The notes beneath the pieces are model-generated. The model did not search any database and was not told where the DNA came from. It worked only from the letters and a program-made list of their open reading frames with translations. The translations under genes and the position numbers were made by a program. From Verrucomicrobiota bacterium (GTDB lineage Bacteria > Verrucomicrobiota > Verrucomicrobiia > Limisphaerales > SXTU01), in contig JACRKB010000073.1 of NCBI GenBank assembly GCA_016235545.1, positions 25,015-89,014 on the forward strand: DNA of 64,000 bases. Direction: 5' to 3'. Below are positions 5,433 to 46,405 of this stretch, piece by piece (the stretch's first letter is position 1; the number at the start of each line of letters is the position of its first letter).

Positions 5433-5438
5433 GGGAGC

Positions 5439-8271: not shown

Positions 8272-8286
8272 GCCGGGCGCGCAGGT

Positions 8287-8304: not shown

Positions 8305-8435
8305 AAGCAATGATTTCCTTGTCCGGCCTTTCCCATCACTCACTGCCCACCTTCGTTCCTAACCGATTCGCCGGTTGCCTCAGGGCGGGATAGTTCCCTG
8401 CTGTGCGGCCGGCGATTTCCAACCCCGACACCCCC

Positions 8436-11082: not shown

Positions 11083-11203
11083 ACGCGTGATCGATTCATC
11101 CGGCGCGGCGGGGAACCGCGGGCATCCCGGTCCTCAAGCCTTGCCGCCTGACGATTTCCTCCCGGCTTTCCCCGCCGCGCCGGCGCGCGACCGCGCTTTC
11201 CGC

Positions 11204-12022
11204 GTGCGCTGCCCTGCCGAGTGGCGGCTGCTCGGATTCGCGCTGCTTGCGGCGCTCCCCGCTCAGGCGGCGGTAGAAGCCCGTCACGTGCTCTATTTTG
11301 GCGACTCCATCACAGCCGGCAGCGAATTGCCCGCCGACCGCCGACTCATCGATCGTTGGCCCGCGCAGGTGATGGCGCTCTCGCAAGGACGCTTGGTCGA
11401 ATGGAACGAGGGCCTCGGCGGTCGCCCGACCGATGCCGAGGCGGACTTCGCCGCCGCGCTCGCACGTCATCCCGCTCCCGATGCGCTCGTGCTGGCGCTC
11501 GGCACGAACGACTCGCGCGATCTCTCGGCTGATATGGCGCCGAAAGCAGTCGCGCATCTCCGGCGGATGATCGCCGCCGCGCGGGCCGCGCATCCCGCGA
11601 TTAAAATTCTGCTGGCCGGCCCGCCGAACATCGCGCTCGAGCACCTGGGCCCCACCAAGCCGATCGGCCCGCAGCGCGCCGCGAATCTGCGCGCGCTGAA
11701 CGCAGCTTTCGCCCGGCTGGCCCGCGAATCTCACTGCCGCTTCGTCTCGTTCTACGGCGTCGTGCCGCCCGCCAGCTTGGCGAAGGATGGCGTGCATCCC
11801 GACGCCGCCGGCAATCGCGCTCTCGCCGCCGTCGCCCTCCAGGCGATCGAGGCGCTGTTCGCACCGCCCGTCCGGGCTCAGGTCGCAGTCGCGCACGCGG
11901 ACCGCCTCGGCGATCTCCGGGCCCATCGGGCCCTCCCGCGCCTCCACGAGCCGGGTAATCCGCCCGGCTTTGGGGCGGCGACTCCCTTCGGCCCGCGGGG
12001 AGCACCGCCGGTTCCAGCATGA
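11204..12022 (+). CDS. SGNH/GDSL-family hydrolase (esterase), probably secreted
   Basis: Block I is YFGDSITAG (Ser nucleophile), followed by GLGG, GTND and a C-terminal DGVHPD (Asp/His). The putative signal is RCPAEWRLLGFALLAALPAQA. There is no in-frame ATG downstream of the TBDR stop, so GTG 11204 is proposed and the start is uncertain. The stop overlaps the next ATG (ATGA at 12019-12022). Confidence 0.75.
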   Translation: MRCPAEWRLLGFALLAALPAQAAVEARHVLYFGDSITAGSELPADRRLIDRWPAQVMALSQGRLVEWNEGLGGRPTDAEADFAAALARHPAPDALVLALGTNDSRDLSADMAPKAVAHLRRMIAAARAAHPAIKILLAGPPNIALEHLGPTKPIGPQRAANLRALNAAFARLARESHCRFVSFYGVVPPASLAKDGVHPDAAGNRALAAVALQAIEALFAPPVRAQVAVAHADRLGDLRAHRALPRLHEPGNPPGFGAATPFGPRGAPPVPA

Positions 12023-27467: not shown

Positions 27468-30400
27468 TCAGAATTTCCGGGTGAGCTCCAAGTAGTAGCT
27501 GCGGCCCTTGGCGCTGACGGTGCCGCCCTGGTAGCCGCGGGACTCGTCGGCGAGCGGCGGCTCCTCGTCGGTGAGGTTGGTCACGCCGAGGCGGACGCTG
27601 AGGCCCGCCAGCAGCTTGTTTTCCTTGCCGAATCGGTAGGCGACGTAGGCGTTCTGCTGGATGACGTCCTCGATCCACCAGCGGTAGCGGACCACGCCGC
27701 CGGTGTCGTTGTAGACCTTGATGTAGTCGGGCTGGCCGAGGGATTCATAGACGGTCTGGGTGGTGGCGGCGCCGGTATCCATCGAGCCGCCGTAATACTC
27801 GGCGAACCAGCCTGCGCTCCAACCCTTGAGGCGCCAGTTGAGGCTGAGGTTGCCGCGCCACTTGGCATTGCCGTTCTCCTCGAGCACGGAGTCGACCGGC
27901 GAGTCCTCGTCGACCTTTTCGTCGAACTTGCGGTTGTAGGTGGCGCCGGCGCGGACATCGAACTGGCCGAAGCGATTCTTCGGCAGCCGGTAGTTGAGCG
28001 CGAAGTCGATGCCTTCGAGATCGCGGCCGGAAAGGTTGAGATAATCGTCGATGACGCTGAGGACGGCGCCGACCGGGGCGCGCTGCTCGCTGGCGGGGCG
28101 GCCGGCGTTGTAGGCGGCGTAGGCGTCGCGGTCGGCCTGGGTGACGGGGGCGCGCGTGACCTTGGGGTTGCCGCGGTAGTTGGCGGTGCCGGAGCCGGTG
28201 TCGAGGGCGTTGGGGTTGCCGCCGGCGGCGAGGGTGAAGGCATCAAGCAGCTCCTCGTCGCGCAGGAGCTGGCCGGTGGCGCTGACGTTGTCGATGACCT
28301 TGTTCTGATCCATGCGCCACCAGTCGGCGGTGAGGGTGAGGCCCTTGATCCACGGCACTTCGAAGGCGACACCGATCGTGGCGATCTTGGATTCCTCGGG
28401 CTCGAGGGAGGCGTTGCCCTGGCGGAAGACGGTGCGGTTGGTGGGGCCGTCGGTGATGAGGTTGGTGACCTCGAAGCGATAGGGGTCGGAGACGCCGGTG
28501 ACGGAGCGCTGGAGGGGCGAGGTGTTGGTCTGGACGAGATTGGGGGCGCGGAAGGACTCGTTGAAGGAGGCGCGCACGAGGAAACGGCTGGCCGGGCGCC
28601 AGGCGAGGGAGTATTTGGGCTTAAAGGCGTCGCCGAAGTCGGAGAACTTCTCGTAGCGGCCGGCGACGGAGAGTTCGAGGAGCTTGACGAGAGGCAGTTG
28701 GTTGCCCTTGCCGACGAAGGGCACGAGCACCTCGGCGTAGCCGGAGATGACGTCGCGGTCGGAGGCGAGGTTGACGTTGGGGCTGAGGGCGATGAAGTCG
28801 TTGTCGATGGCCGGCAGGACGAACCCCGCGCCGTTCTGGCCGTGGAAGGGCGGGCGCCAGTCCTTGTAGGTCTCGTAGCGATACTCGACGCCGGCGGCGG
28901 TGCCGATGCGGCCGCCCCAGAAATCCCAGACGGTGCCGTTGATCTTGGCGTCCCAGGTGGCAAGCTCCGTGGTGCCTTCGCGGATGAAGGTGTCGTAGAG
29001 GGGATCGACGACGCTGGCGGGGTTGGTGTAGGGCTGGTCGATTTGGATGACGCCGCCGACGTTGCGGAAGGTGTAGCCGAAGGGGTTGAAGGCGGTGGCG
29101 TCGGTGCGGACGAGGGCCTCGGCGAGCCGGCTGTGGCGGATGTTGTAGTCCTCCTCGTCGCGCGTCCAAGCGCGCGAGTAGAGGAGGGCCGATTCCCACT
29201 CGAAGTCGCCGTAGGTCTTGCCACGGAGACCGGCGACGCCACGGAGGGCCTGCGAGAGGACGTTGATGTCGCGCTGGCGGAACTCGCGCGGGCGCACGCC
29301 GGCGGTGAGGAGGACATCGGCGGGCGCGCCGGTGATGCGGGGCGTGCCGTCGGCGTTGGGCGCGCCGGTGGGATGGTAGAAACGCGAGCCGAAGGGATTC
29401 CAAGGATTGTCGCGGCTGACGAAGATGTTGACATCGTCGGTGGCGTCGACGGCGACGGGATCGCGGTGGTTGAAGGATTCGGCCCGATAGTAGGAGAGTT
29501 CGCCGAAGGCGCTGAGGCGGTCGTTGATCTGATGGTCGAGGGCGGTGAAGAAGTTGATGCGGTCGGTGCGCGGGAGGATGACGCGGTCCTGGTTCAGGTT
29601 GTAATAGTAGTCGCGTTCGACGCTGGTGGGGGAGCGCGAGGGCGTGCTCTGGCGGAAACCGACGCCGCCGGCCGCGAGCGGCACGAAGAAGAACGAGCCG
29701 GAGGTGGAGGCGGTGAGCGTGGTGGAGGGTGTGGTGGAAGTGGTGATGCCGGCGTTGCCGGTGGGACGCGCGCCGACGAAGACGCCGCTGGAGTTGAACG
29801 TGCCGCGCTGGAAGTTGCCGAACTGGGACGCGCTGGAGCGGTTGTCGAAATCGTTGTCGGTGGTGGACCACGGCTCGGGGAGATTGGCCGTGCGGCGGAT
29901 GTCGGAGTCCTTGGAGAATCGGCGCTGGTTGGTGCCGAGGAGGTCGCGGTGATAGTAGTCGAGCATCGCGAGGACGCTGGTGCGACCACCGTTGAAGAGT
30001 TGGCCGCCGGAGAGGGTCACGCGCCAGTCATTGGCCCCGCCGTGCTCGGTGACGCTGCCGCGCACGGAGAGTTCGTAGCCGTTGTAGTCGCGGCGGAGGA
30101 TGGTGTTGACCACGCCGGCGGCGGCGTCGGCGCCGTAGATGGCGGACGCGCCGTCGCGGAGGACCTCGACGCGGTCGATCGCGGCCATGGGGAGCTGGTT
30201 GACGTTGACGGCGAGAGCCGGGGCGCCGCCCTCGGCCTGGGAGATGGGGTGCGGGGCGAGGCGGCGGCCGTTGATGAGGACGAGGGTGTTGCCCGAGCCG
30301 ATGCCGCGGAGGTTGAGCGAGGTGTTGTCGCCGCGGGCGTCGGCACCGAGAACGTTGGTCTCGGTCAGGGTGAGGACGCCGCCGCTGGGGAGCATCTGCA

Positions 30401-30635
30401 GGAGTTCGGAGGCGGTGGGCGCCGCGAAGGCCGCGAGATCGTCGCGATCGAGCACGGTGACAGGGAGCGTCTTTTCCTGATCGAGGCGGCGGAGGTGGGA
30501 CCCGGTGACGGTGAAGGCGTCGAGCTTTACGGGCTCGTCGGCGGGTGCGGGCGCGGTCTGGGCGAAAACGGCGACGGCGGCCAAAGCGGCGGCGCTCGCC
30601 GCGACGCGACGGAGGTTCTTCAGGTTGGTGGTCAT
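27468..30635 (-). CDS. Large TonB-dependent outer-membrane receptor (~1055 aa)
   Basis: Signal MTTNLKNLRRVAASAAALAAVAVFAQ (ATG 30635). Plug motifs are present (LDAFTVTGS, NLRGIGSGNTLVLINGRR, IDRVEVLRDGASAIYGADAAAGVVN). C-terminal ...SYYLELTRKF. Confidence 0.9.
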   Translation of the reverse strand: MTTNLKNLRRVAASAAALAAVAVFAQTAPAPADEPVKLDAFTVTGSHLRRLDQEKTLPVTVLDRDDLAAFAAPTASELLQMLPSGGVLTLTETNVLGADARGDNTSLNLRGIGSGNTLVLINGRRLAPHPISQAEGGAPALAVNVNQLPMAAIDRVEVLRDGASAIYGADAAAGVVNTILRRDYNGYELSVRGSVTEHGGANDWRVTLSGGQLFNGGRTSVLAMLDYYHRDLLGTNQRRFSKDSDIRRTANLPEPWSTTDNDFDNRSSASQFGNFQRGTFNSSGVFVGARPTGNAGITTSTTPSTTLTASTSGSFFFVPLAAGGVGFRQSTPSRSPTSVERDYYYNLNQDRVILPRTDRINFFTALDHQINDRLSAFGELSYYRAESFNHRDPVAVDATDDVNIFVSRDNPWNPFGSRFYHPTGAPNADGTPRITGAPADVLLTAGVRPREFRQRDINVLSQALRGVAGLRGKTYGDFEWESALLYSRAWTRDEEDYNIRHSRLAEALVRTDATAFNPFGYTFRNVGGVIQIDQPYTNPASVVDPLYDTFIREGTTELATWDAKINGTVWDFWGGRIGTAAGVEYRYETYKDWRPPFHGQNGAGFVLPAIDNDFIALSPNVNLASDRDVISGYAEVLVPFVGKGNQLPLVKLLELSVAGRYEKFSDFGDAFKPKYSLAWRPASRFLVRASFNESFRAPNLVQTNTSPLQRSVTGVSDPYRFEVTNLITDGPTNRTVFRQGNASLEPEESKIATIGVAFEVPWIKGLTLTADWWRMDQNKVIDNVSATGQLLRDEELLDAFTLAAGGNPNALDTGSGTANYRGNPKVTRAPVTQADRDAYAAYNAGRPASEQRAPVGAVLSVIDDYLNLSGRDLEGIDFALNYRLPKNRFGQFDVRAGATYNRKFDEKVDEDSPVDSVLEENGNAKWRGNLSLNWRLKGWSAGWFAEYYGGSMDTGAATTQTVYESLGQPDYIKVYNDTGGVVRYRWWIEDVIQQNAYVAYRFGKENKLLAGLSVRLGVTNLTDEEPPLADESRGYQGGTVSAKGRSYYLELTRKF

Positions 30636-30643
30636 GGGAGGGG

Positions 30644-30657
30644 CAACGACGTCGTTG
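30644..30657. promoter_or_regulatory. Perfect 14-bp palindrome CAACGACGTCGTTG in the 5' leader of the large TBDR gene
   Basis: Self-complementary 14-mer located 9 nt upstream of start codon 30635 (minus strand). It could be an operator or an RNA hairpin occluding translation initiation. Confidence 0.3.
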
Positions 30658-30784
30658 TTCCGGAGGCGCTGAGCTGGCAAGGGCATCAGGGGGGGTAGTT
30701 CTACGCATACTCGGAGTCGCCGGGCAAAACCCGCGCTCATCGCACTTGTCTCCCGCAGCGGTCTGTCGAAGATGGCTCCGCATC

Positions 30785-31471: not shown

Positions 31472-33508
31472 TCAGTCCACCGCGGGCAGCACGACGCGGA
31501 ACGTCGCGCCTTCGCCGGGCTGGGATTCCACCTCGAGCGTGCCGCCCTGGCTGGCGAGCAGCTCGTGCGCGATGGAGAGTCCGAGGCCGTGGGTCGGCTC
31601 GCCGGCGGTGGGCGCGGCCGAGAGTTGCCCGAACGGCGCGTAGAGCCGCGCGAAATCCTCCGGCGCCAGGCCGGGTCCGTTGTCGCGCACGGCGAGCAGC
31701 ACGCGATCGCCGGCCGGCTCGAGGGTGACAGCGATCAGACCGCCGACCGGGCTGAATTTGAGCGCGTTGGAGAGCAGGTTCTCGAGAATCTGCCGCAGTC
31801 GGGCAGCGTCGGCCCGCACGCGCAGGGGAGCGCCGACCGGGGCCACGAACTCGAGGGTCTGCCGCTTGCCGACGGCGAGGCCGGCGAAGCCCTCGACCGT
31901 TTCGCGGGCGAGCACGGCGAGATCGACGGTGACGAGGTGAAGTTCGAGCCGGCCGGCCTCGAGTGCGGCCCGGTCGAGGAATTCATGCACCAGGCCGCCC
32001 ATGCGCAGGCTGTCGGAATAAATGGCGTCGGCGAGGCGGTTGACCGCGGGGTTGTGCTCCGCCTCGCGCCGGATGCTGGCGGCGGCCGAGCGCACGAGGG
32101 CGATGGGGGCCTGAAGATCGTGGGAGGCGATCTGCAGCAGGCGGGTCTTGAGCTGCGCGGCGTCCACGGCCGCCTGGCGCGCCTCCTCGGTGGCGGCGAG
32201 CGCGCGGCGCTCGGCGCGGAGACGCTGGCGCTGCGTGAACGCCACCGCGCCGCCCAACCCGATGGCGAGCAGCAGGCCGGCGGCGATGGCGGCGTTTTCG
32301 CGGCGACTCCGGCCCAGTTCCTCGGCTTGGAAGATCCGTTCGCGCTGGAGCCGCTCGATTTCGCGGTCGCGTTTCTCGGCGTCGAAGCGCGCCTGCAACT
32401 CGGCGATGCGGTCCTGCGCGCGCTCGTTGAGGACGGCGGCGTTGGCGGCGGCGAGCGCCCGCTCGGCCTGCAGGGCGGCCAGCAGTTCGCCGCGTGCCTC
32501 GTGGGTGAGACTCAGCTCGCGGTGGATGGAGGCGAGCACGGTCTGGCTGCCGAGCTTCTCGGCGAGGGCGAGGCCGGCGCGGAGGTGCGCGAGCGACTCG
32601 TCGGCTCGGCCCAGCTGGCGCAGGAGCGAGGCGAGGCGGCTGTGCGCGAGGGCGAGATTGCGGGGCACGCCGACGCGCTCGTAGATGGCGAGCGCCTCCC
32701 GTTGCTGCGCGAGCGCGCCCTCGAGATCGCCGGCGGCCTGGGCGACGTTGGCCAGGTTGGTGAGGGTGTCGGCAACGCCCCGGTCGTGGCCGAGCGCGCG
32801 GCGGAGGCGGAGCGACTCCTCGTAGAGTTCGGCGGCACGGTCGTAGCTTTTGCCGGCCATGTGGTAGTTGCCGTAGAGATTGAGCACGAACGTCAGCGCG
32901 GAAGGATCGCCGCCACGGCGCGCGTGGTCGAGCGCGCTCGCGTGGCGCCGGCCGGCCTCCTCGCGCTGGCCGAGCCGCAGGTAGGTCGAGCCGAGGCCGG
33001 CTTCTCCCAGCGCGAGCAGGCGTTCGTCGTGTAGTTTCTCGGCGAGGCCGAGCTGCTGCAGGTAGCACTCGACCGATTCGGGATACTGGCCGCGGCTCCA
33101 ATAGGTGCGGCCGAGCAGGAAGAGAAACTCCGCTTCGATCCGCTCGTCGCCGCGATCCCGAGCGCGGGCTCGGCCTGCCTGAGCCAGCGAATGCGCGGTG
33201 GTGTAGTCGCCCCGGCGCCGGTGAACGGAGGCGAGCTCGACTAGCGCCTTCAGCTCCTGGTGCTCATCGGTGGCGAGAGCGCGGGCGCGTTCGGCGGCGG
33301 CGAGGGCGCGCGGCAGGTCCACCGGTTCGAGTGCGCGGGCCAGGCGTGCCAGCAGCGGCGATCGCTCGGCCGGTGCCGCGGCGGCGAGCTGTTGTTCGAG
33401 GCGCACTACGTCGGCCGAATCGCCCGGCGCCGCCGCGAGGACACCGACTGCGCCGGCCAGCAGGGTGGCCAGCACGGGGCGGAGGAGCGAGTGCGGGACG
33501 GGGAACAC
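31472..33508 (-). CDS. TPR-repeat sensor histidine kinase
   Basis: Signal/TM at the N-terminus, ~8 TPR-like repeats (..YTTAHSLAQAG.., ..GNYHMAGKSYDRAAELYEESLRL..), a coiled coil and a TM (AAIAAGLLLAIGLGGAVAF). H-box IASHDLQAPI, then HATPase N/G boxes (LLSNALKF, DNGPGL, GLGLSIA). Confidence 0.9.
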   Translation of the reverse strand: MFPVPHSLLRPVLATLLAGAVGVLAAAPGDSADVVRLEQQLAAAAPAERSPLLARLARALEPVDLPRALAAAERARALATDEHQELKALVELASVHRRRGDYTTAHSLAQAGRARARDRGDERIEAEFLFLLGRTYWSRGQYPESVECYLQQLGLAEKLHDERLLALGEAGLGSTYLRLGQREEAGRRHASALDHARRGGDPSALTFVLNLYGNYHMAGKSYDRAAELYEESLRLRRALGHDRGVADTLTNLANVAQAAGDLEGALAQQREALAIYERVGVPRNLALAHSRLASLLRQLGRADESLAHLRAGLALAEKLGSQTVLASIHRELSLTHEARGELLAALQAERALAAANAAVLNERAQDRIAELQARFDAEKRDREIERLQRERIFQAEELGRSRRENAAIAAGLLLAIGLGGAVAFTQRQRLRAERRALAATEEARQAAVDAAQLKTRLLQIASHDLQAPIALVRSAAASIRREAEHNPAVNRLADAIYSDSLRMGGLVHEFLDRAALEAGRLELHLVTVDLAVLARETVEGFAGLAVGKRQTLEFVAPVGAPLRVRADAARLRQILENLLSNALKFSPVGGLIAVTLEPAGDRVLLAVRDNGPGLAPEDFARLYAPFGQLSAAPTAGEPTHGLGLSIAHELLASQGGTLEVESQPGEGATFRVVLPAVD

Positions 33509-33517: not shown

Positions 33518-35752
33518 TTAGGGCGGATCAGGCTGCGCGGCAAGCGAGGCCGCGCGAGCGGCGGCGGCGCGGGCGCCCTCGCGGTCGCCGAGGCGCTGGA
33601 GCACGCTGGCGAGCGCGTGCGGGTAGTCCGCGGTGCGTGGTTCGGCGCGTTCTGCCTGGCGCAGCGCCTCCGCCGCCTCGGCGAGGCGGCCGCGCTTGGC
33701 GAGCAGGAGCCCGAGGTTATACCAGGCGCGGTGCAACGCCGGGGCGCGCTCGACGGCGGCGCGGAGGAGGCGCTCCGCCGCGTCGGGCTGCCCGGCTTCG
33801 GCGTGGGCGAGCGCGGCTTGCAGCGCGAGGGGCGCGTCGTCGGGCGCGAGCGCGACCGCGCGGTCGAGTTGCTCCGCGGCGTCGGCGATATTGCCGTCGG
33901 CGGCGAGCACGAGGCCGAGGGATTGGCGGATGCCCGGGGAAAACGGATCCCACTCCGTGGCGCGGCGCAGCTCGGCGGCGGCCTCGGCGAGGCGGCCGCG
34001 GTTGGCCCAATCCTGCGCGCGGCGCACGCGGCCGGCGGGCTGGTCGAGCGTGAGCGCGAGGTAGTCGTCCAGCTCGCGCCGCGCGGGCGAGGCGGCGGGC
34101 AGGGTGGGCGAGAGTGCCCACGCGGCTTCGAGGCGCACGCTGCGGACCGGATCGGTCAGCAGCGGACCGAGCCGCTCGGCCGCGTCGGGCGCGCCGAAGA
34201 AGTAGCGCGCGGCGGCGGCGCGCTCGAGCGGATCAGCGGCGCCGAGCGAAGCGACGGCGATCTCGCGGCCGTGGACGGCGTCGCGCGTGCGCGGCAGCAG
34301 CGTGAGCAGGGTGGCGCGCCAGGCGGGGATGTCCTCGCGCCGCCAGGTGTCGAGGAGGAGCGCGGCGGCGCCGGGCGCATCGCTTTGGGCGGCGGCGACG
34401 GCGCGGGCGCGGAGCCGCTGGCGCTCGCGGACGCGGGAGCCGAACCACTCGTCGGCCTTGGTCACGGTCCAGTCCAGCCCGCGGTCGGCGTGGCAGGAGG
34501 AACAGGCGTTGGGGATGCCGAGTTCGCGGGTGAGGAGCGGATCAGGCGAGAGCCAACCGTGGTCGTGCCGGGGCGCGCGTTGCATGTAGTTTTTCGCCGG
34601 CATGTGGCAGGCGATGCAGGAATTGCCCGCGCTGCCGGGCTGGTGGCGCGAGTGGGCGGATGGATCGATGGGCACGGCGCGCGTGCCGCCGGGGAGCACA
34701 CGGCCGGGCGCGGCATGGCATTGCAGGCAGAGCTGGTTGTCCGCGGCCGGAAGGATCGTGCGCGTGGTGTGCGGATCATGGCAGTCCAGACAGGTGACGC
34801 CCGCATGGCCCATGCGGCTGAGCTGGACCGAGGTCCAATTGAAATCCTCGTCGCGCTGCTGGCCGTCGGGATAGAACGTGGCGGCGTCCACGGGCAGCGT
34901 GAGGCGGAAATGATCGGCGTAGCGGTCCCCGGGCGTGAAATTTTCGGTGAGCGGCTCGTGGCGACCGTGGCAGGTCGCGCAGGTCTCGGCCATGCGCTGG
35001 CGGTCGCCGCGGAATGGCGCGGGCGGCGTGGAGGGTCGCGAAGCGTGCGGGTCGCCGTGGGCGGCGGGCATCGCGCCGTGGCACTGGATGCAGCCGACGC
35101 CGTGCTCGATCCAGGTGGAGGCGTAGCGGTCGGCCGCCGGGTCGTAGTTTTTCCGGTAGCCGGTCATGTGGCAGGGAGCGCACATGGAATTCCAATTCAT
35201 GCCGCGGCCGGTCCAGTGACCCCACTCGCCGGGGCGGCGGCGCTCTTCGCCGAAAACATTGAACCACTCGCGACGCCCGACATCGTAGGCGAGATCGGTG
35301 GGTTGCCAGCGGCCGCCCGGGGCCGCGACGAGCGGCTGCCAGAGGGGCTTGGCGCCAAGGATGAACTGCGCAGTGTAAGTGACGGACGGCTCGCCGGCGC
35401 GCAGTTCGGTCAGGCGCGGACCGCTCTCGGTCCAGGCGAGCGCGAAATCGGAGCCGCCCGCGGTGGCGCGAGGATGCGCGGCGAAGGCCTCGCGATCGCG
35501 TGCCGGATCGACGGGGCGGTTGGCGAGAGCGTGATCGGTGCCCGACCAGGCTTGGAAGATCTCGGCGTGACATTCGCGGCAGGACGCGGAGGTCTGGGTC
35601 GCGGCCGCGGGCGGGCCGGAAGCTGATGTGCCGCGCGGGGCGCAAGCCACGGTGCCGAGCAAGAGCAACGCGCCCGGTGCCGCCAGCGCGAGGAGGGCTC
35701 GCAACAGGTGCGCGGTGCGATGTTCGGAGACTGGGACGCGCGGTGCGATCAT
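33518..35752 (-). CDS. Periplasmic octaheme c-type cytochrome fused to a C-terminal TPR domain
   Basis: Signal-like N-terminus. Eight CxxCH motifs: CRECH, CAPCH, CIQCH, CATCH, CLDCH, CLQCH, CIACH, CSSCH. The C-terminal ~300 aa are TPR-like (..AWYNLGLLLAKRGRLAEAAEALRQA..). The stop lies 9 nt before the kinase start. Confidence 0.9.
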   Translation of the reverse strand: MIAPRVPVSEHRTAHLLRALLALAAPGALLLLGTVACAPRGTSASGPPAAATQTSASCRECHAEIFQAWSGTDHALANRPVDPARDREAFAAHPRATAGGSDFALAWTESGPRLTELRAGEPSVTYTAQFILGAKPLWQPLVAAPGGRWQPTDLAYDVGRREWFNVFGEERRRPGEWGHWTGRGMNWNSMCAPCHMTGYRKNYDPAADRYASTWIEHGVGCIQCHGAMPAAHGDPHASRPSTPPAPFRGDRQRMAETCATCHGRHEPLTENFTPGDRYADHFRLTLPVDAATFYPDGQQRDEDFNWTSVQLSRMGHAGVTCLDCHDPHTTRTILPAADNQLCLQCHAAPGRVLPGGTRAVPIDPSAHSRHQPGSAGNSCIACHMPAKNYMQRAPRHDHGWLSPDPLLTRELGIPNACSSCHADRGLDWTVTKADEWFGSRVRERQRLRARAVAAAQSDAPGAAALLLDTWRREDIPAWRATLLTLLPRTRDAVHGREIAVASLGAADPLERAAAARYFFGAPDAAERLGPLLTDPVRSVRLEAAWALSPTLPAASPARRELDDYLALTLDQPAGRVRRAQDWANRGRLAEAAAELRRATEWDPFSPGIRQSLGLVLAADGNIADAAEQLDRAVALAPDDAPLALQAALAHAEAGQPDAAERLLRAAVERAPALHRAWYNLGLLLAKRGRLAEAAEALRQAERAEPRTADYPHALASVLQRLGDREGARAAAARAASLAAQPDPP

Positions 35753-36086
35753 GGGCGGAGCAGCTCACGCGTGCGCGCAATCGCCCGGCCGGGCAATCTT
35801 CTTTCTTGGTCCCTGTGATCCCGGCTCCTGGGCGTCGATGTTGTCGCGGGAAAATTATCGCGTTGGTGGGCACCCGGTTGGCGAGGGGTGGTAAAAATTA
35901 CCTAAATGTCACTAAGGGGTGTCCGATGTTGTGGGAACAGTTTCGGCACGTTTGCGCGCCGGAGCTGCGTTCTCCGACAGCATCAAGGGCCACCCCGAGT
36001 TGCATGGCATCGCCGTGCGACATCGCGCACGCATGGCTCCGGATCTGGCAGGGGAGCACCGTTCACCTCAACTCCCGACACCTCCC

Positions 36087-37286
36087 ATGCGTCCCACCTC
36101 TCGCTTCATCCTCGCCGGCGCGCTCCTGCTCGGCACCACCCTGCTCACCCGCGCCGCGGTCACCGTCGGCAGCACCAACGTCCAGATCGGCGGCTTCTTC
36201 AGCCAAGGCTACCTGAAGAGCAGCAAGAACAACCACCCCTTCGAGGCCAAGGACGGCACCTGGGACTTCCGCGAGATGGCGGTCAACGTCTCCACGACCA
36301 TCGGCACGCACCTGCGCGTGGGCGCGCAGGGCTTCGCGCAGAAGCTCGGCAACTACGGACGGGACGAGGTTCTGCTCGACTGGGCCAATGCCGATTACAA
36401 CTTCCGCCCCGAGTTCGGCGTGCGCGCGGGCCGCATCAAGTATCCGAAGGGTCTCTACGGCGAGGCGCTGGACGTCGATGCCATCCGCCCCTTCATTTTC
36501 CTGCCGAACAACATCTACAGCGTCGTCCGCCGCGATTTCTCGGCCTCCTTCGACGGCGCGATGTTCTACGGCTCGCTGAACGCGAAACAGGCCGGGAGCT
36601 TCGACTACAAGCTCTTCTACGGCGACATCGCCATGAGCCCCAAACAGGGCGTGGCTGACCTGTTCAACAACGCCAACCTCTTCGCGGCCCCGGGCGTCCA
36701 ATCGCTATCGGTCGAGAAGGTCTATGGCGTCGCCATCGATTGGAGCACGCCGTTGTCCGGCCTGAAAATCCACGCGTCCTATTCGAAGCTCGACCAAGCG
36801 GTGGCGACCGGTCGCTTCCTGGCCGTTCCGGCCTTGCCGTTGCGCGCCGAAGTCTCACCCGCCTACACCACGGTGGGTGCGGAATACACCCGCGGCGACT
36901 GGACCCTGGCCGCCGAATACATGCACGAGGACGGCCCCGTGGCCTACCAGACCCAGCCCGCCTCGGTATTTTCCGTCGCCCGCCAATACGGCACCCGCAA
37001 TTACTACGCTTCCGTCGCCCGCCGCTTCGGCGAGAAATGGGAACTCGGCGCCTACTACGCGAAAGCCAAGAACGCCCACCCCGCCGCGACCGATCCCGAG
37101 CCCGCGCGGCACCTCGACGACTGGGCCTTCGCCATCCGCTACAACGTCAACGAGCACGTCATCGTGAAAGCGGAGTTCCACACCATCGACGGGCGCTACA
37201 ACGTGATCAACACCCCCCGCACCCCCAACCCGACGCTCGCCGACTCGATGTCGTTCTGGGCCCTCAAGACGACGTTCGTGTTCTGA
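36087..37286 (+). CDS. Putative outer-membrane beta-barrel porin (uncharacterised family)
   Basis: Signal MRPTSRFILAGALLLGTTLLTRAAV (ATG 36087). The body shows an alternating amphipathic beta-strand pattern rich in Y/G/N/A. The C-terminus WALKTTFVF ends in an aromatic residue, as expected for OMP barrels. Confidence 0.7.
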   Translation: MRPTSRFILAGALLLGTTLLTRAAVTVGSTNVQIGGFFSQGYLKSSKNNHPFEAKDGTWDFREMAVNVSTTIGTHLRVGAQGFAQKLGNYGRDEVLLDWANADYNFRPEFGVRAGRIKYPKGLYGEALDVDAIRPFIFLPNNIYSVVRRDFSASFDGAMFYGSLNAKQAGSFDYKLFYGDIAMSPKQGVADLFNNANLFAAPGVQSLSVEKVYGVAIDWSTPLSGLKIHASYSKLDQAVATGRFLAVPALPLRAEVSPAYTTVGAEYTRGDWTLAAEYMHEDGPVAYQTQPASVFSVARQYGTRNYYASVARRFGEKWELGAYYAKAKNAHPAATDPEPARHLDDWAFAIRYNVNEHVIVKAEFHTIDGRYNVINTPRTPNPTLADSMSFWALKTTFVF

Positions 37287-37324
37287 GCGCACCGCCCCCT
37301 CCCCTCCGCCAACCGACTCGCACC

Positions 37325-37744
37325 ATGAAACCGTTTTTCCTCCGCCTCCTCGCGCTCGCGGCCCTCACCGGCCTTTGTGTCGTCGCCCAGGCCGCTCCCA
37401 CCCTCGTGGGCAACAAGAACCTCGCCTCGGAAAAGATCGACGCCGCCACCGTCAAGGCCGTCTTCCTCGGCAAGAAAGTCGCCTGGGAAGGCGCCGGCCG
37501 CGTCACCCTCGCCGTGCTGAAGGGTCCGATCGCCGACGAGTTCCTCAAGGGCGCCGTCGAGATGGACTTCGGCCAGTTCAACAACTACTGGCGCCGCCTC
37601 GCCATGACCGGCGGCGGCACCGCGCCCAAGTTCTTCGACAAGCCCGACGATCTCCGCCGCTTCGTTGCGGAGACGCCCGGAGCCATCGGTTTCCTCGACG
37701 CCTCGGCCGTCGATGCCTCCCTGATCACCCTCAACGGCAACTGA
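37325..37744 (+). CDS. Small secreted PBP-like (phosphate/anion-binding-protein-like) domain protein
   Basis: Signal MKPFFLRLLALAALTGLCVVAQA. The 139-aa body carries ..VKAVFLGKKVAWEGAGRVTL..., WRRLAMTGGGTAP and ETPGAIGFLDAS. From memory this resembles single-lobe PstS-like proteins that sit beside signalling genes. Confidence 0.7.
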   Translation: MKPFFLRLLALAALTGLCVVAQAAPTLVGNKNLASEKIDAATVKAVFLGKKVAWEGAGRVTLAVLKGPIADEFLKGAVEMDFGQFNNYWRRLAMTGGGTAPKFFDKPDDLRRFVAETPGAIGFLDASAVDASLITLNGN

Positions 37745-37754
37745 GCCGCCCGCC

Positions 37755-39314
37755 ATGAGCGCCAGCACCACTCTCAGCCTCAAGCGGGCCTTCACCGGCA
37801 TCATCCTCGGCTACGTCTGCCTGACGGCGCTGATCGTGGGCGTCGGCGTGCTCAGCGCGCAATTCTCCCGCACCGGCGCGCGCAAGACCGCCGAGATGAG
37901 CGAGCTCCTGCTGCCGGCCCTCCAGGATCTCGCCGGCCTGCAGGACGCCGCCCTCCGCTACCACCTCGCCAACCTGGAGTTCGTCACCGGCCGCGACGAG
38001 GAGATCCAGAAGCGCAAGCTCGAGGAGGCCGCGCGGCAGCGCCGCGATCTCGAGCGGCACGCCCAGGCGCTCGACGGCCGCCTCCAAGCGCTGAATAGCG
38101 GCATCTCGCGCGCCGCGCTCACCGCGGCGGTCGGCCAATACGACGGGGCCGTCGAGCGGCTCCGCGCCGCCCTCAAGGCCAACGATTTCACCGAGGCCAT
38201 GCGGCTGCTCGACACCGAGGTCGCCGCCGCAAGCGCCGCGGTGGACGCGGCCTTGGCCAAGCTCACCGAACAGGTCTCCTCACAGGCCCTGGTCAACGGC
38301 GGCGAGACCTCCGCCATCCTCGCCCGCAACCTGAAATTCGGTGTCACCCTCAGCATCGCCGTCGGCGCGCTCGGCTTGGCCGGCAGCGGCCTGGTGTTCT
38401 GGCTCAGCCGGCGGATCAGCCGCCCGCTCCAGCAGGCGATGACGCAGATGCACGAATTCACCGAGAGCACCGCCACCGCCTCCGTCCAGATCTCGAATTC
38501 CAGCCAGTTGCTGGCCGACGGCGCCAGCCAGCAGGCCGCCTCGCTGGAGGAAACCAGCGCCTCGCTCGAAGAGATGTCCGGCATGACCCGCCGCAACGCC
38601 GAGGCCGCCGAGAACGCCAAGCAGATCGCCGGCGCCACCCGCACCGCCGTCGAGGCCGGATCGGCCGGCATGCAGCGCATGAACACCGCGATGGAGGGCA
38701 TCAAATCCTCCAGCGACGAGATCGCGAAGATCATCAAGACCATCGACGAGATCGCCTTCCAGACCAACATCCTGGCTCTCAACGCCGCCGTCGAGGCGGC
38801 ACGCGCGGGCGAGGCCGGCGCCGGCTTCGCCGTCGTCGCCGAGGAGGTCCGCGCCCTCGCCCAGCGCTCCGCCACGGCCGCGAAGGAGACGGCCGAGAAA
38901 ATCGAAGCCGCTCTCGCCAAGAGCGCCGAGGGCACGCGCACCAGCGCCGAAGTCTCCGGCATGCTGACGCAGATCGTCGAGCAGGTTCGCCGCATGGACA
39001 CGCTCGTGGCCGAGATCGCCACCGCCTCGCGCGAGCAATCCGAGGGCATCACCCAGGTCAACAAGGCCGTGTCCGCGATGGACAACGTTACGCAGTCCAA
39101 CGCCTCCACCGCCGAGGAGAGCGCCGCCGCCGCCGAGCAGCTCTCGGCCCAGTCGCGCGAGCTCAAGGGCGTCGTCGAGCAGTTGCGCGGGCTCATCGGC
39201 GGCGGAGCCGCCGCGCAGCCGCGCGAGGCTGACGTCTCCCCCGCCGTGGTCGCACCTGCGGCGCGCGCTCCCAGACGGCCAGTCGCCCACGCGCCGGGTG
39301 CGGCGCACGCTTGA
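37755..39314 (+). CDS. Methyl-accepting chemotaxis protein
   Basis: N-terminal TM, a helical sensor region, a second TM plus HAMP. The highly conserved signalling hairpin reads IDEIAFQTNILALNAAVEAARAGEAGAGFAVVAEEVRALAQRS. Methylation-site-like EE/QQ heptads are present. Confidence 0.92.
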   Translation: MSASTTLSLKRAFTGIILGYVCLTALIVGVGVLSAQFSRTGARKTAEMSELLLPALQDLAGLQDAALRYHLANLEFVTGRDEEIQKRKLEEAARQRRDLERHAQALDGRLQALNSGISRAALTAAVGQYDGAVERLRAALKANDFTEAMRLLDTEVAAASAAVDAALAKLTEQVSSQALVNGGETSAILARNLKFGVTLSIAVGALGLAGSGLVFWLSRRISRPLQQAMTQMHEFTESTATASVQISNSSQLLADGASQQAASLEETSASLEEMSGMTRRNAEAAENAKQIAGATRTAVEAGSAGMQRMNTAMEGIKSSSDEIAKIIKTIDEIAFQTNILALNAAVEAARAGEAGAGFAVVAEEVRALAQRSATAAKETAEKIEAALAKSAEGTRTSAEVSGMLTQIVEQVRRMDTLVAEIATASREQSEGITQVNKAVSAMDNVTQSNASTAEESAAAAEQLSAQSRELKGVVEQLRGLIGGGAAAQPREADVSPAVVAPAARAPRRPVAHAPGAAHA

Positions 39315-39323
39315 CCTGCACGG

Positions 39324-39367
39324 GCCGGCCGGGAATTCCGGCCGGCTCCAGCGCCCTGCGGCTTTTT
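39324..39367 (+). terminator. Possible terminator region after the MCP gene
   Basis: GC hairpin GCCGGCCGGGAATTCCGGCCGGC (one bulge) 10 nt after the stop. A short GCC-CTGC-GGC hairpin and TTTTT (39363-39367) follow. The geometry is imperfect. Confidence 0.35.
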
Positions 39368-39602
39368 GAACACCCCGGCGCGGAGCACGCCGCCTCCGCG
39401 TCACGCCGGTGGGCGCTGCGGGAGTCTTTCATCCCGCCCGAGGGGATACCAATCTGAATTCCGCAGGGGAGACAGAGAGCACAGAGCCAAACCGGAGAAT
39501 CACGGAGGGTTGAAAACGGGAAGCAGGGCGGGTCCTACTCACCCGTGACGTGAACGAGTCCGAAGAGAGGACGAATATAGCCCGCATATTTCACACCCGG
39601 TT

Positions 39603-39711
39603 TGTCATCGCGAGCCCGACGTAGTCGGGCGTGGCGATCCAGCGAGCGCTGGATGTCAAGCTGTCGGCCTGCGGCCTCGGTAGCTTCGTCGCTCCGCTCC
39701 TCGCAATGACA
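39603..39711 (+). repeat. REP/MITE-like palindromic element, copy 1 (TGTCATCGCGAG ... CTCGCAATGACA)
   Basis: Terminal inverted repeat TGTCATCGCGAG / CTCGCAATGACA, with internal GTGGCGATCCAG..CTGGAT and CTTCGTCGCTCCGCTCCTCGCAATGACA blocks. These are shared with the copy at 46330-46405. The track ORF 39535-39738 ('CHCEERSDEA') is just its translation. Confidence 0.7.
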
Positions 39712-39826
39712 GGTGTAAAATAGGCGGGTTGGGTTCAAAGGGCGATTGAGATCGGCGCCAAGCTCCGGGTCTTCGGCTCGAACGGTCCGCGCCTCCCCGG
39801 CACGGGCGCGGTGTGGCCCGGCGGGC

Positions 39827-41938
39827 TCAGGCGGCGGGCGGGGCGATCTCGGCCAGCGCGGCGGCGAAATCGCAGGGGTGAAAGGGCTTCAAGAGCACGC
39901 GGGGCGGTGGGCCGGGGATAGCGCTGAGCGCGTCGGGCCGGTCGGCGAGTAGATTGGAGTAGCCGGTCATCAGGATCGCGGGAACGCCCGGATTGAGCGT
40001 CCTGATCTCGTGGAGCAGGGCGAGCCCCGAGATGCCTCCGGGCATGACCATGTCCGTGATCACGAGGTCGTAGGCGCCAGGAGACTGCCGCCAAAGTTCG
40101 AGGGCGGCGCGGCCGTTGGGGGCAACGTCGCTGGGGATGCGCTCGTTGGCCAAGACTTTGGGGAGCAACTCGCGCACGATCTCGTCGTCCTCGGCGACTA
40201 GGGCGCGACCGAAGCGGCCGGCTCCGCGCTGGGCCACCGGCGCGCCGGGCGCGCCGGGCGCGGCGGGAGGCTCTACGGTCGGGGCGGCGGGGGCGACGGG
40301 ATGGTAGAGCGTGAAGGTCGTGCCCGCGCCGGGCTGGGTTTTCACAGTGACCCAGCCGCCCTGCTGATGGACGATCGCGTAAACGGTGGACAGGCCGAGG
40401 CCCGTGCCTTTGCCGGGCTCCTTGGTGGTGAAGAAAGGTTCGAAGACGTGGGGGAGCGTCTCGGGCGCTATGCCGGTGCCGGTATCGGCGACGGAAATCT
40501 CGATGAAGTCGCCGGGGCGGGCGTCGATCTGGCGGCGGGCGGCTTCGGCGTCCACCGTGAGCGGGCGGGCGGCGATTTCAATGCATCCTCCACGGGGCAT
40601 GGCGTCGCGGGCGTTGACGACGAGGTTGACGACGACTTGTTCGAAGCTCGCGATATCGGCCACCACGCGGGGCAGGTTGGCGGGGATGTTCCAGCGGATC
40701 TCGATGTCGGCGCCGATCAACCGGCGCAGGAGCGGCCGGAGTTCGGCGAAGACCTCGTTCAGGTCCGCGAGTTCGGGCTGCAAGATCTGCTTGCGGGCGA
40801 AGACGAGCAACTGGCGGGTGAGGGCGGCGGCCCGCGTGGCGGCGGTCTGGATGGGCACGGCCATGCGCCGCACCTCCTCCTCCCGGGCGAGGTGCCGGAT
40901 CTCTCCGGCATAGCCTTGGATCGCCGTGAGTATGTTGTTGAAGTCATGGGCGATGCCGGCGGAGAGCTGGCCGATGGCGTCGAGCTTCTGCGATTGGCGG
41001 AGCTGCTGCTCGAGCTCGAGCTGCTGCGTGACGTCGCGCAGGAGCCAGATGGAGCAGAGCCGGCCGTTGAGCTGGATGCGGCGGCCGACGCAGCGGATGT
41101 GCCGCTCGGGCTCACCCGGCAGACGGAAAACGAAGGGATAGTCGTCGATCTCCTCGCCGGTGACGACCCGCTCGAGCAGGGCGCGCCAGCGCTCGGGATC
41201 GACGCCGCGACCGAAATTGTCGGTCGTGGTGCGGGCGAGCTCCGCCGGCGTCGTGTGGAAGAGGCTTTCGAAGGCGCGGTTGACCGCGAGGATGGCGAAG
41301 CCGGGCTCATGGGCGAGGATGGCCTGCGCGATCGGGCTGGCGTTGAAGGCGGCGGTGAAACGGGCCTCGGATTGGACGAGCTCGTCGGTGCGGTGGCGGA
41401 CGGCGCGATCGAGCTCGTCGAGCCGGGCGCGGTGGGCGCTGGCCAGTTCCCACTTCGTGGTCAGGGAATGGGCGAGCTGCAGCACCTCCACGTGATCGAA
41501 GGGTTTCTTGAGGATGAGGAGGTTGGACGACTGCCCGAGGCGCTCGCGGATGGTGGACCAAGTGTGGTCGGAATAGGCCGTGCAGATGACAATCTGCAGC
41601 TCGGGGTCGGCAGCCCAGAGGTGGCCGATGGTTTCGAGGCCGTCCCAGCCCGGGGGCATGCGCATGTCGACGAAGGCAAGGGCGTAGGGCCGCCCCGCCG
41701 CGAGGGCGCGCTGGACGAGTTCGAGGGCCTCGGCCCCCTGATAGGCGGCGTCGAGATCGTATCTCGGAGGGGAGGGAGCGGGGGCAGGTTCGGTGTCGCC
41801 GAACACGGCGGTGGCAAGCGCGTCGCGCGCCGCGGCGTCGGCGGGTGGCAGGGCGAGGATCTTGGCGAAATCCAGGTGGATGGACGCCGTGTCGTCGACG
41901 ATCAGGATGCGGTGGAGAGCGGGTGCAGGGGTATTCAT
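39827..41938 (-). CDS. Hybrid sensor histidine kinase / response regulator (REC-PAS-HisKA-HATPase-REC)
   Basis: Start [16 protein letters not shown] (ATG 41938, ATGA overlap with the upstream stop). N-terminal receiver ([12 protein letters not shown]), a PAS-like region, H-box [13 protein letters not shown], HATPase (NARDAM, DTGTGI, GTGLGLS), and a C-terminal receiver (ALVAEDDE..., [15 protein letters not shown]). Confidence 0.9.
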
Positions 41939-43629
41939 GGTGCAGCCGGTGGGGTGAAGACGAGGGGCAGCTCGAGTGTGAAGGTGGCCCCGAGCCCGCG
42001 TCCGTCGCTCGCGGCGCGGAGCGTGCCGCCGAGGTTGGCGGCGGCGAGGGCGCCGGAGTGCAGGCCGAAGCCGTGGCCATCCTTCCGCGTGGTGTAACCG
42101 TGCTGGAAGAGCCGGGCGATGTCCTCGGGGGCGATGCCGACGCCGTTGTCGCAGACGGCGAGGCGCACGCGTCCGGCGGCGACGGTGAGCCGCAAGGTGA
42201 CGCGCCGGTCCGGAGCGGGGCGGGTTTTGACGGCGTCGATGGCGTTCTGGACGAGGTTGACGACGATCTGAAGGGCGAGATGGCGGTCGGTGCTGAGCAG
42301 GGGGCGTTCCGGGGGATAGTCCTGCTCGATGACAACCTGATGCCGCTGGAGGGAGGCGCGGGCGATGCGCTGCGCGTCGGCGAAAAGCTCCGCGGGGTCG
42401 AAGGTCTGGGTGAGGCCGCCGGCCTTGGTGTAGTCCTGCTGGACGGCGACAATCTGCCGGATGTGGTCGATGTTGGTGGACAGGGACGAGAGTTCGCGGG
42501 TGAGATCGGCGCGGCATTGCTGGAGCCCGGCTCCGATTTCGACGATCAACCCGGGCACATGGCGCCCGCGGGGATCCTCGGCGATAAAGCGCGGGGCCTC
42601 GGCGCCGCGCTCGCGCAGGAGGGCGGCGGTGCGGTCGAGGAGCCCGAGGTGCGGGTTGGCGGCGAGCTCGTCGCGGACGATGTTGGCGGAGACGTTGACG
42701 GAGTTGAGGACGTTGCCGACGTTGTGGAGGATGCCGGTGGCGACCTGGGCCATGCCGGCGAGGCGCGAGGCCTCGAAGAGGCGGCGCTGGGTCTCGGCGA
42801 GGTCGCGGTGGGCGCGTTCGGCGGCGTCCTTCTGCTCGCGAAGCTCGCGGGTGCGGGCCTCGACGCGTTCCTCCAACCTGAGATTGGCTTCCTGCAGGTT
42901 GCGGTCGCGGGTTTGGATGGCTTCGGTCATCCCATTGACGGAGCGGGCGAGCTGGCCGAGTTCGTCCTGCCGGTCATTCTCGGCGCGGGCGGCCAGGTCG
43001 CCGCGCGCCACCCGGCCGACCACCGCCTGGAGCTTCAGGAGCGGGCTGAAAAGCAGGCGGGCATTCAGGTAGGCGGCGCCGAAAGCGAGCGCCATCGCGC
43101 CGGCGGCGAAAGCGAGCGTGTGCCGCAACAGGCGGCGGAGGCCCTCGTCGTGGGCGTGGAGGGACAATCCCACATGGATGCGCCCCCAGGGAATGCCGCC
43201 GTATTCCAAGGGCCGGGAGTAACGGTAGGCGCGCCCCGGCAGGGGCGGGAACTCGCCGATCTCGCCGTGCGGCTCCGGCGCGCCCGAGCGCCAGGAGCGG
43301 TCGAGCTTTTCGGTGTGCCAACCCTGCCGGTCGTGCACGAGGGTGAAGCCGTCGCTGCGCGCAAGCACGATGAAATCGATCTCCGCGTCGCCACGGATGA
43401 CCGTGGTGCACTGGTCCACGACGGCGGTATAGTCCTCAGTCACCAGCGCGGTGGCCGAGAGTTCCTGAAGAAACAGTGTGATGCTGTTGGCCTTGGAGGC
43501 GAGCGCGTCGAGCGCATCCTGCCGCTGCTGGGGAAAAAGCGCTGCGGCGTAGAGCCCGACCATGACCAGCGCGATGCCCCAGATCTGCAGGGTGGCGCGC
43601 CAAACCAGGCAAGCGCTCGGGGGCTTCAT
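41935..43629 (-). CDS. Membrane sensor histidine kinase (periplasmic sensor domain - HAMP - coiled coil - kinase core)
   Basis: Start MKPPSACLVW (ATG 43629, ATGA overlap). Two TM segments flank a ~150-aa periplasmic region. HAMP (LKLQAVVGRVARGDLAARAE), H-box GILHNVGNVLNS, and HATPase (VQNAIDA, DNGVGI, GFGLH). Confidence 0.88.
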   Translation of the reverse strand: MKPPSACLVWRATLQIWGIALVMVGLYAAALFPQQRQDALDALASKANSITLFLQELSATALVTEDYTAVVDQCTTVIRGDAEIDFIVLARSDGFTLVHDRQGWHTEKLDRSWRSGAPEPHGEIGEFPPLPGRAYRYSRPLEYGGIPWGRIHVGLSLHAHDEGLRRLLRHTLAFAAGAMALAFGAAYLNARLLFSPLLKLQAVVGRVARGDLAARAENDRQDELGQLARSVNGMTEAIQTRDRNLQEANLRLEERVEARTRELREQKDAAERAHRDLAETQRRLFEASRLAGMAQVATGILHNVGNVLNSVNVSANIVRDELAANPHLGLLDRTAALLRERGAEAPRFIAEDPRGRHVPGLIVEIGAGLQQCRADLTRELSSLSTNIDHIRQIVAVQQDYTKAGGLTQTFDPAELFADAQRIARASLQRHQVVIEQDYPPERPLLSTDRHLALQIVVNLVQNAIDAVKTRPAPDRRVTLRLTVAAGRVRLAVCDNGVGIAPEDIARLFQHGYTTRKDGHGFGLHSGALAAANLGGTLRAASDGRGLGATFTLELPLVFTPPAAP

Positions 43630-46329: not shown

Positions 46330-46405
46330 TGTCATCGCGAGGTGCGCGAAGCGCGCCGTGGCGATCCAGCTGGATTGCTTCGTCGCTGCGCTCCTCGCAA
46401 TGACA
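46330..46405 (+). repeat. REP/MITE-like palindromic element, copy 2 (shorter variant)
   Basis: TGTCATCGCGAG-GTGCGCGAAGCGCGCC-GTGGCGATCCAGCTGGATTGCTTCGTCGCTGCGCTCCTCGCAATGACA. It has the same termini and core as copy 1 and the same orientation. Confidence 0.7.

Follow-up and report, generated by a model that had tools for sequence, protein, structure and literature searches.

Most bacterial chemoreceptors and sensor kinases respond to signals that have not been identified. Indirect sensing by way of a periplasmic binding protein is, to our knowledge, limited to a handful of systems, none of which has its own outer-membrane channel encoded alongside. The ChiP/CBP/ChiS system of Vibrio combines a specific porin, a periplasmic binding protein, and an inner-membrane sensor, with CBP holding the sensor until the ligand arrives. 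In Pseudomonas aeruginosa, phosphate-bound PstS activates the chemoreceptor CtpL, giving an indirect form of phosphate chemotaxis (PMC4926252; reviewed in PMC8050422). YfiR is built as a single lobe of a binding-protein fold and alternates between two partners, a protein of the outer membrane and a sensor of the inner membrane (PMC4655355; PMC3375315); natural single-lobe binding proteins as such have been regarded as rare oddities in work on binding-protein evolution (PMC10601554). Here, we analyze three adjacent genes from a 64,000-nucleotide stretch of a Verrucomicrobiota bacterium (assembly GCA_016235545.1, contig JACRKB010000073.1, positions 25,015 to 89,014; henceforth the window), which code, in this order, for a porin-family outer-membrane protein, a small secreted protein predicted to adopt a single lobe of the PstS fold (henceforth the small protein), and a methyl-accepting chemotaxis protein (MCP). 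We propose, with a probability of about one in two, that this trio is one copy of a widespread trans-envelope sensing module, in which the small protein relays to the receptor.

The three genes lie on the same strand with spacers of exactly 38 and 10 nucleotides (nt), for which the open reading frame (ORF) map and a direct reading of the sequence agree both with each other and with an initial annotation of this DNA made from its letters. Identical contigs occur in two NCBI assemblies and in a JGI metagenome, and the public gene calls made on them predict the same products of 399, 139, and 519 amino acids (aa). The closest relatives are metagenome-assembled genomes (MAGs) of Opitutaceae. A genome scan with the small protein, covering one genome per GTDB species and identifying neighbors by tblastn, recovered 37 loci. 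A porin homolog is found immediately upstream of the small gene in all 37 and an MCP ortholog downstream of the pair in 34, the others being one with a histidine kinase (L040), one without a receptor (L041), and one cut by a contig end (L037); a receptor thus adjoins the pair in 35 of the 36 testable loci. The triad is common to about 35 species-level Opitutaceae-type genomes. In L040 (a Chthoniobacteraceae MAG), a 1101-aa PAS-GAF-PAS histidine kinase (6424-9729) directly follows the porin and small genes, and its N-terminal sensor is homologous to residues 19-206 of the window MCP (27% identity). Because this locus keeps a homolog of the sensor fused to a kinase, it is the sensor domain, not the output, that travels with the pair. 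Two loci have tandem porin and small pairs, with two pairs upstream of a single MCP (L023:4644-8040 and L034:4872-8303), and additional porin copies are seen in L063, L073, L079, and L116.

More distant relatives (27 to 40% identity) keep the small gene, the porin, and an MCP or kinase together in three gene orders (Table 1), and the porins in these contexts are homologous to that of the window, with E values of 1e-39 to 1e-49. A metagenome scan seeded with such distant members, in which six-frame ORFs were searched with local hidden Markov models (HMMs), added 80 loci; pooled with the earlier distant loci L040-L047, these came to 67 after dereplication. The porin is directly adjacent to the small gene in 56 of the 57 testable loci (absent in 1, with 10 further loci untestable), in the order small-porin in 31, porin-small in 20, and otherwise in 5. 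An MCP (18) or a kinase (8) flanks 24 pairs, two of which are flanked by both, as judged by a heuristic ORF selection on which receptor adjacency in the metagenomes relies. Pfam matches among 55 immediate neighbors include MCPsignal (18), HATPase_c (8), and HAMP (8). Most of the receptors beside pairs share an architecture of a transmembrane (TM) helix, a periplasmic domain of about 170 aa that is unannotated in Pfam, a second TM helix, and a HAMP domain. Hosts of the module include Verrucomicrobiota, Desulfobacterota, and Aminicenantes, and since the genes outside it differ between loci, we take it to be an autonomous unit. The porin and single-lobe gene pair is hence an obligate core, which usually stands beside a receptor that has two TM helices and, in the periplasm, a helical domain of about 160 to 170 residues, and the three genes co-occur far beyond chance. 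The conservation of the triad in Opitutaceae-type genomes, together with the recurrence across phyla of the pair beside an MCP or kinase, supports the functional linkage of the three genes that the initial annotation had put forward; a lack of co-conservation, which that annotation had named as a refutation, is decisively contradicted.

The small protein possesses a Sec signal peptide (approximately residues 1-24, ...VVAQA/AP) and no lipobox. Its mature form of about 115 residues is free of cysteine and basic, with an isoelectric point (pI) of 8.6; basicity is a property of the family, pI exceeding 8 in 62 of 68 members. The window protein has no match in Pfam and scores 14.7 bits (E=0.013) against TIGR02136, far below the cut-off of 206.6 bits, and neither Pfam nor NCBIfam holds a model dedicated to it. 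Weak matches to PF12849 (PBP_like_2) are found in 54 of 75 relatives and to TIGR02136 in 51 of 68. A profile search of PDB with the relatives recovered PstS proteins only (PstS1 4exl, residues 76-186, E=3.5e-4), and the aligned part, which is residues 74-187 in 4exl and 95-201 in Escherichia coli PstS, constitutes the continuous lobe, domain II. An AlphaFold2 (AF2) model from a diverse alignment has a predicted local distance difference test (pLDDT) score of 77; it was retained in place of one from an Opitutaceae-only alignment, which scored 50 and was discarded. The top 20 Foldseek matches of the retained model are all PstS proteins (4exl, E=2e-6), with a TM-score of 0.63 when normalized on the query versus 0.35 on the PstS target, and hence the model corresponds to half a PstS. 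Taking the model and the profile matches together, the small protein is predicted to be a stand-alone domain II, one lobe of the fold shared by PstS and other type-II binding proteins, as had been surmised when it was described as a 139-aa secreted PstS-like half-domain protein.

This family has many members: 297 clusters at E<=1e-10 were recovered when 1.84 billion representatives were searched exhaustively, and among the best 150 of these, almost all members are 130 to 160 aa long. A Pontiellaceae MAG is one source among the ten distant representatives that were looked up. The family is marked by a specific central motif, QF..YW(K/R)(K/R)..FTG.G..PK.F, in which W89, G96, and P101 are invariant; the conserved patch runs F85..W89-R-R..T95-G-G-G..P101-K..F104. 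In two of the best 150 representatives, P0213 (258 aa) and P0218 (291 aa), one secreted protein contains two lobes fused in tandem, so that a pairing of lobes is at least possible. Source annotations call members of the family either "hypothetical protein" or [quoted passage not shown]; the latter label is misleading.

PstS contacts phosphate from both of its lobes, with Thr10, Ser38, and Asp56 contributed by domain I and Arg135 and Ser139-Gly140-Thr141 by domain II (E. coli numbering). The small protein, with one lobe only, is devoid of domain I. In the remaining lobe, the position of the PstS loop R-x-D-G-S-G-T (window sequence, LAVLKGPIADEF) is occupied by L-K-G-P-I-A-D in the window protein and by L-K-x-G-x-x-H in the wider family. 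In the family profile, "vvLkege" is matched to the "sRedGS" segment of 4q8r and 4gd5 while no other part of the loop can be aligned, and the HMM alignments retain the scaffold motifs "iF.G..t.W" and "pGAiGY" only, skipping the central 35 positions. Because this central region has diverged and been replaced by the family-specific motif, the canonical anion site is not retained. As far as sequence comparison goes, the missing domain I and the lost anion loop appear to rule out canonical phosphate binding by the small protein, and the earlier suggestion that it might hold an anion in a PstS-like pocket is weakened by the same two features. Among the neighbors of the small gene in the window (porin, MCP, kinases, and cytochrome), there are no pstCAB or other ATP-binding cassette (ABC) transporter genes and no Pho-type context.

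The porin begins with MRPTSRF..., a signal-peptide-like N-terminus (MRPTSRFILAGALLLGTTLLTRA), and ends in ...KTTFVF, the terminal Phe of which is invariant across 17 relatives. It marginally passes the gathering threshold of Porin_4 (PF13609; 27.7 bits versus 27.0), a model matched by 8 of these 17 relatives (best E=5.4e-9), and 4 of them match the phosphate porin family Porin_O_P (PF07396) weakly (best E=2.9e-4), a family to which the window porin itself showed no match in a Pfam search. The Porin_4 score, the signal peptide, and the C-terminal Phe agree with the initial recognition of this gene product as a beta-barrel outer-membrane protein. It is identical (100%) to the NCBI entry [quoted passage not shown] About 45 residues are invariant among the 17 homologs, which come from four phyla; they cluster in the first 150 residues (GF.SQGY, DWA..DY, and G.R.GR.K.P.GLYNE..D.D..R....LP) and again near the C-terminus (K.E.H..G), and the charged ones include D98, D103, R113, R134, R149, K361, E363, and H365. 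The cultured Oleiharenicola lentus has a homolog of this porin, ESB00_14840. A PDB sequence search with the porin family found no solved relative, and NCBIfam has no model dedicated to it.

The MCP is unambiguous in its signaling domain, which clears the MCPsignal threshold of 34.6 bits by a wide margin (Table 1). A hydropathy scan places its two TM helices at about residues 13-37 and 195-218, enclosing a helical periplasmic domain of about 158 aa. This domain scores 21.9 bits against 4HB_MCP_1 (PF12729), for which the cut-off is 27; the homologous sensor of the L040 kinase reaches 40.6 bits, and the MCP ortholog of L001 is annotated with PF12729. The receptor can thus be described, as it was at the outset, as an MCP with a helical periplasmic region, probably one of the four-helix-bundle type.

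The relative conservation of the three products was compared pairwise across 25 Opitutaceae-type triads. Mean pairwise identity is 0.66 for the small protein, 0.64 for the cytoplasmic domain of the MCP, 0.54 for the porin, and 0.51 for the periplasmic domain of the MCP. The distances of the small protein correlate at 0.73 with those of the porin, at 0.73 with those of the MCP periplasmic domain, and at 0.52 with those of the cytoplasmic domain; porin and cytoplasmic domain correlate at 0.34. These values, in which shared phylogeny is still included, give a hint that the small protein might be constrained by two partners.

With these components, several steps of a relay can be envisaged. The porin may admit a specific solute, or it might itself report or constitute the signal. 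The small protein would act as a periplasmic go-between that contacts the four-helix bundle of the receptor, with the signal recognized by the small protein alone, by its dimer, or jointly by it and the receptor bundle. Its binding to, or release from, the periplasmic domain of the MCP would change the control of CheA and hence swimming. Such a relay could operate by ligand-dependent partner switching, as in CBP/ChiS or PstS/CtpL, with the ligand probably bound otherwise than in the canonical PstS manner. We favor ligand-dependent switching because chemotaxis is the commonest output, because the pairs duplicate as units before one MCP, as expected for added specificities, and because PstS-CtpL and CBP-ChiS provide precedents. 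One lobe by itself has no means of enclosing a ligand, and the small protein would therefore depend on a second surface, be it another lobe, the receptor, or the porin. We also raise a more far-reaching proposal, which we regard as tentative: single-lobe type-II binding proteins, together with a cognate, co-evolving porin, might form an outer-membrane-coupled co-receptor for chemoreceptors and kinases, with the half-binding-protein reading the passage through the channel or its occupancy, possibly as a dimer or through a composite site. If so, this would be a new class of signaling, "porin-coupled sensing," and P0213 and P0218 would be present-day representatives of the duplication and fusion by which binding proteins have been proposed to arise.

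Several observations weigh against the relay through the small protein. Closure on a ligand in the manner of a Venus flytrap is impossible for a single lobe, which has also lost the anion loop of PstS; the mirror-tree correlations carry shared phylogeny; and the annotated part of the window (about 24 to 48 kb) has no che or flagellar genes. Further, 5 of the 29 assessable pairs, i.e., those with a flanking receptor or with at least 1.5 kb available on both sides, have no adjacent receptor, and one flanking MCP with an sCache sensor and one flanking kinase of a cytoplasmic PAS type are possibly mere neighbors. The receptor-less pairs (L058, L114, L120, L123, and L041) could therefore point to a receptor-independent role. 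Their neighbors include a methylmalonyl-CoA mutase fusion, a Gln/Glu-tRNA synthetase, and, in L120 and probably L123, a 396-aa protein without annotation and, after it, a protein with PEGA and FGE-sulfatase domains. Such metabolic surroundings, along with the invariance of the porin and small pair as the core, would suit an accessory that gates, stabilizes, or drains the porin for uptake, with the adjacent receptor sensing the nutrient directly, as four-helix-bundle domains such as that of CtpH can (PMC4926252), and its adjacency reflecting mere co-regulation. We consider this unlikely, given that a receptor adjoins 24 of the 29 assessable pairs as well as 35 of the 36 testable genome loci, that the same sensor domain is kept despite a change of output in L040, that the distances of the small protein co-vary with the periplasmic domain of the receptor, and that no inner-membrane transporter is conserved beside the pair. 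In one MAG (LacPavin_0920_WC70_MAG_67_8), the pair occurs twice, accompanied by an MCP at L024 but not at L041, and a receptor-less pair may therefore use a receptor encoded elsewhere.

The coupling of porin and small gene (56 of 57) is stricter than that of either to the receptor, which also allows a reading akin to YfiBNR or Rcs, in which the state of the envelope is sensed without a ligand: the small protein would hold the receptor in one state until a change in the outer membrane or the porin leads the barrel to sequester it. YfiR is itself a single binding-protein lobe between the outer-membrane YfiB and the inner-membrane YfiN (PMC4655355), a TonB-dependent receptor and a YfiR-type DUF4154 protein adjoin the module in Desulfonema, and the loss of the ancestral ligand loop from the small protein would fit as well. 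However, the outer-membrane partner is expected to be a complete porin-type barrel whose periplasmic turns are short rather than a lipoprotein reaching into the periplasm, the commonest output is chemotaxis, which normally tracks chemical gradients and not envelope stress, Foldseek finds no specific similarity to YfiR, and the duplication of pairs before one MCP would more readily suggest several ligand specificities; we judge such a sensor to be as improbable as the uptake accessory. The literal model of the initial annotation, in which a PstS-like binder takes phosphate, sulfate, or a phosphonate from an anion-selective porin to the MCP, appears quite improbable. Both sequence and fold point to PstS proteins as the sole detectable relatives of the small protein, a proven precedent exists in PstS-CtpL (PMC4926252), the small-protein family is basic, and 4 of the 17 porin relatives match Porin_O_P. 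Yet, these porin matches are weaker and rarer than those to the generic Porin_4, half of the phosphate ligands disappeared with domain I, the R-x-D-G-S-G-T loop of domain II is replaced in a region that the HMM alignments skip, and pstCAB genes and a Pho-type context are missing. That the genes are unrelated and adjacent by chance, or are miscalled in a high-GC sequence where long spurious antisense ORFs abound, is refuted by the agreement of independent gene calls, the numerous homologs of all three products, and an adjacency conserved across phyla and gene orders. Thus, what stands of the overall interpretation offered initially is its description of the proteins and their functional linkage, supported by conserved adjacency; the PstS-like anion pocket is the part that suffers, from the single lobe and the lost loop.

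Other features of the locus bear on its transcription. The promoter of the three-gene unit can be placed by position only, since a scan of the 334-nt spacer upstream of the porin gene found no sigma-70 consensus. Directly after the MCP stop codon, the sequence can fold into an 11-bp hairpin of -31.3 kcal/mol (z = -2.76; 3 of 200 shuffles fold equally well), which, with the U-run that follows, is the probable end of the transcription unit. The operon-like spacing of the genes and this terminal hairpin speak for reading the trio as one module.

Table 1. Features of the three-gene locus (window coordinates) and arrangements of the module in distant relatives (locus coordinates)
Feature	Position	Strand	Basis or gene order
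Presumed promoter region of the three-gene unit	35753..36086	+	Position only; intergenic, flanked by the divergent gene for the multihaem cytochrome/TPR protein and by the porin gene
Outer-membrane protein of the porin family (predicted beta-barrel), 399 aa	36087..37286	+	Pfam Porin_4; signal peptide ~aa 1-23; C-terminal ...TTFVF
Secreted single-lobe PstS-fold protein (predicted), 139 aa	37325..37744	+	AF2, Foldseek, profile matches
Methyl-accepting chemotaxis protein, 519 aa	37755..39314	+	MCPsignal, E=2.7e-41
MCP periplasmic sensor domain, ~aa 38-194, helical, probable four-helix-bundle type	37866..38336	+	Hydropathy scan; 4HB_MCP_1, 21.9 bits
MCP signaling domain, aa 294-446	38634..39092	+	Pfam PF00015, 141.7 bits
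GC-rich hairpin and U-run, directly 3' of the MCP stop	39322..39367	+	RNA fold
Desulfonema limicola CP061799 (L043)	1363-12444		small-porin-MCP-porin-small-porin-hybrid kinase
Aminicenantes			small-porin-HAMP kinase-hybrid kinase
JGI contig			small-porin-MCP
ENA contigs			MCP-small-porin, next to a convergent 4HB-HAMP kinase
Desulfobacterales			porin-small-MCP

The region of the window around the trio is rich in signaling genes. Divergently upstream of the porin gene lie a 744-aa multihaem cytochrome c fused to TPR repeats (33518-35752, minus strand) and a TPR-containing histidine kinase (31472-33508, minus strand); the cytochrome adjoins the triad in its closest relative, L003, too, but not in more distant Opitutaceae loci. 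A TonB-dependent receptor is encoded at 27468-30740 (minus strand). On the other side, two sensor kinase genes converge on that of the MCP (39827-41890 and 41935-43500, both minus strand), their products being a receiver-PAS-kinase-receiver hybrid and a HAMP kinase. The 500-nt spacer downstream of the MCP gene contains one of two aligning copies of a short palindromic repeat (39603-39711 and 46330-46405) with inverted termini, TGTCATYGCGAG ... CTCGCRATGACA, for which there are 4 matches versus 0.93 expected; a spurious ORF (39535-39738, minus strand) crosses that copy. Rfam and tRNA scans of the window found nothing. In Desulfonema limicola, the cluster (L043) leads straight on to genes for a TonB-dependent receptor and a YfiR-type protein (DUF4154), i.e., a second pair of an outer-membrane protein and a single-lobe binding-protein-like protein, belonging to a different family.

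The module supplies a natural family of single-lobe binding proteins, which spans several phyla and comprises no fewer than about 300 clusters at 50% identity, and is thereby relevant to the evolution of binding proteins. It is compact, and its outputs are swappable between chemotaxis and phosphorelay; it should offer a testable handle on how signals pass through the Gram-negative envelope in abundant, poorly studied bacteria of soil and freshwater.

Set against described families and systems, each component has evident kin. The window porin resembles general porins (Porin_4, PF13609) and OprO/OprP (PF07396) in size, signal peptide, and C-terminal Phe, with a borderline Porin_4 score, and differs from both the general and the phosphate-selective porins in forming a distinct subfamily with its own set of about 45 invariant residues and in being partnered with a single-lobe protein. 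The small protein shares with PstS/PBP_like_2 (PF12849 and TIGR02136), its only detectable homologs, the domain-II scaffold motifs and the fold; in contrast to these proteins, which have about 250 to 320 aa when mature, it is half the size, does not conserve the phosphate ligands, has no transporter partner, and falls below every curated threshold. In PstS-CtpL, as would be the case here if linkage is a guide to contact, a periplasmic protein of the PstS fold acts on the helical periplasmic domain of a receptor. However, that PstS is a two-lobed, nanomolar phosphate binder encoded with pstCAB and away from ctpL, whereas the single lobe of the window module lacks the phosphate loop and is encoded with the receptor and a dedicated porin, without an ABC transporter. 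CBP of the Vibrio system is of full size and supplies an ABC transporter as well, the gene for the porin is not linked, and the families involved differ from those of the window module.

YfiBNR (PMC3375315, PMC4655355, PMC4887326) is alike in being an operon for an outer-membrane protein, a small single-lobe periplasmic protein, and an inner-membrane signaling protein, in which the small protein switches partners. It differs in that YfiR is a DUF4154 protein, resembling a lobe of a type I binding protein, the outer-membrane component YfiB is a lipoprotein of the OmpA-like kind, and the output is a diguanylate cyclase. Pfam finds no DUF4154, OmpA, or GGDEF match in the three window proteins, and YfiR is not among the Foldseek matches; homology of the small protein to YfiR/DUF4154 is hence unsupported by either, leaving a functional analogy only. 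The Geobacter esn/ext system, to the extent covered by the part of its description considered here (PMC5585712), appears unrelated to the module. Our search of the literature on combinations of a porin, PBP_like_2, and a receptor, on single-lobe binding proteins, and on chemotaxis in Opitutaceae found no description of the module, and none of the porin and small pair was found in Pfam, NCBIfam, or solved structures. Its parts come from the known superfamilies of porins, type-II binding proteins, and MCPs, and as an assembly it lies outside both the PstS and the YfiBNR systems as these are defined.

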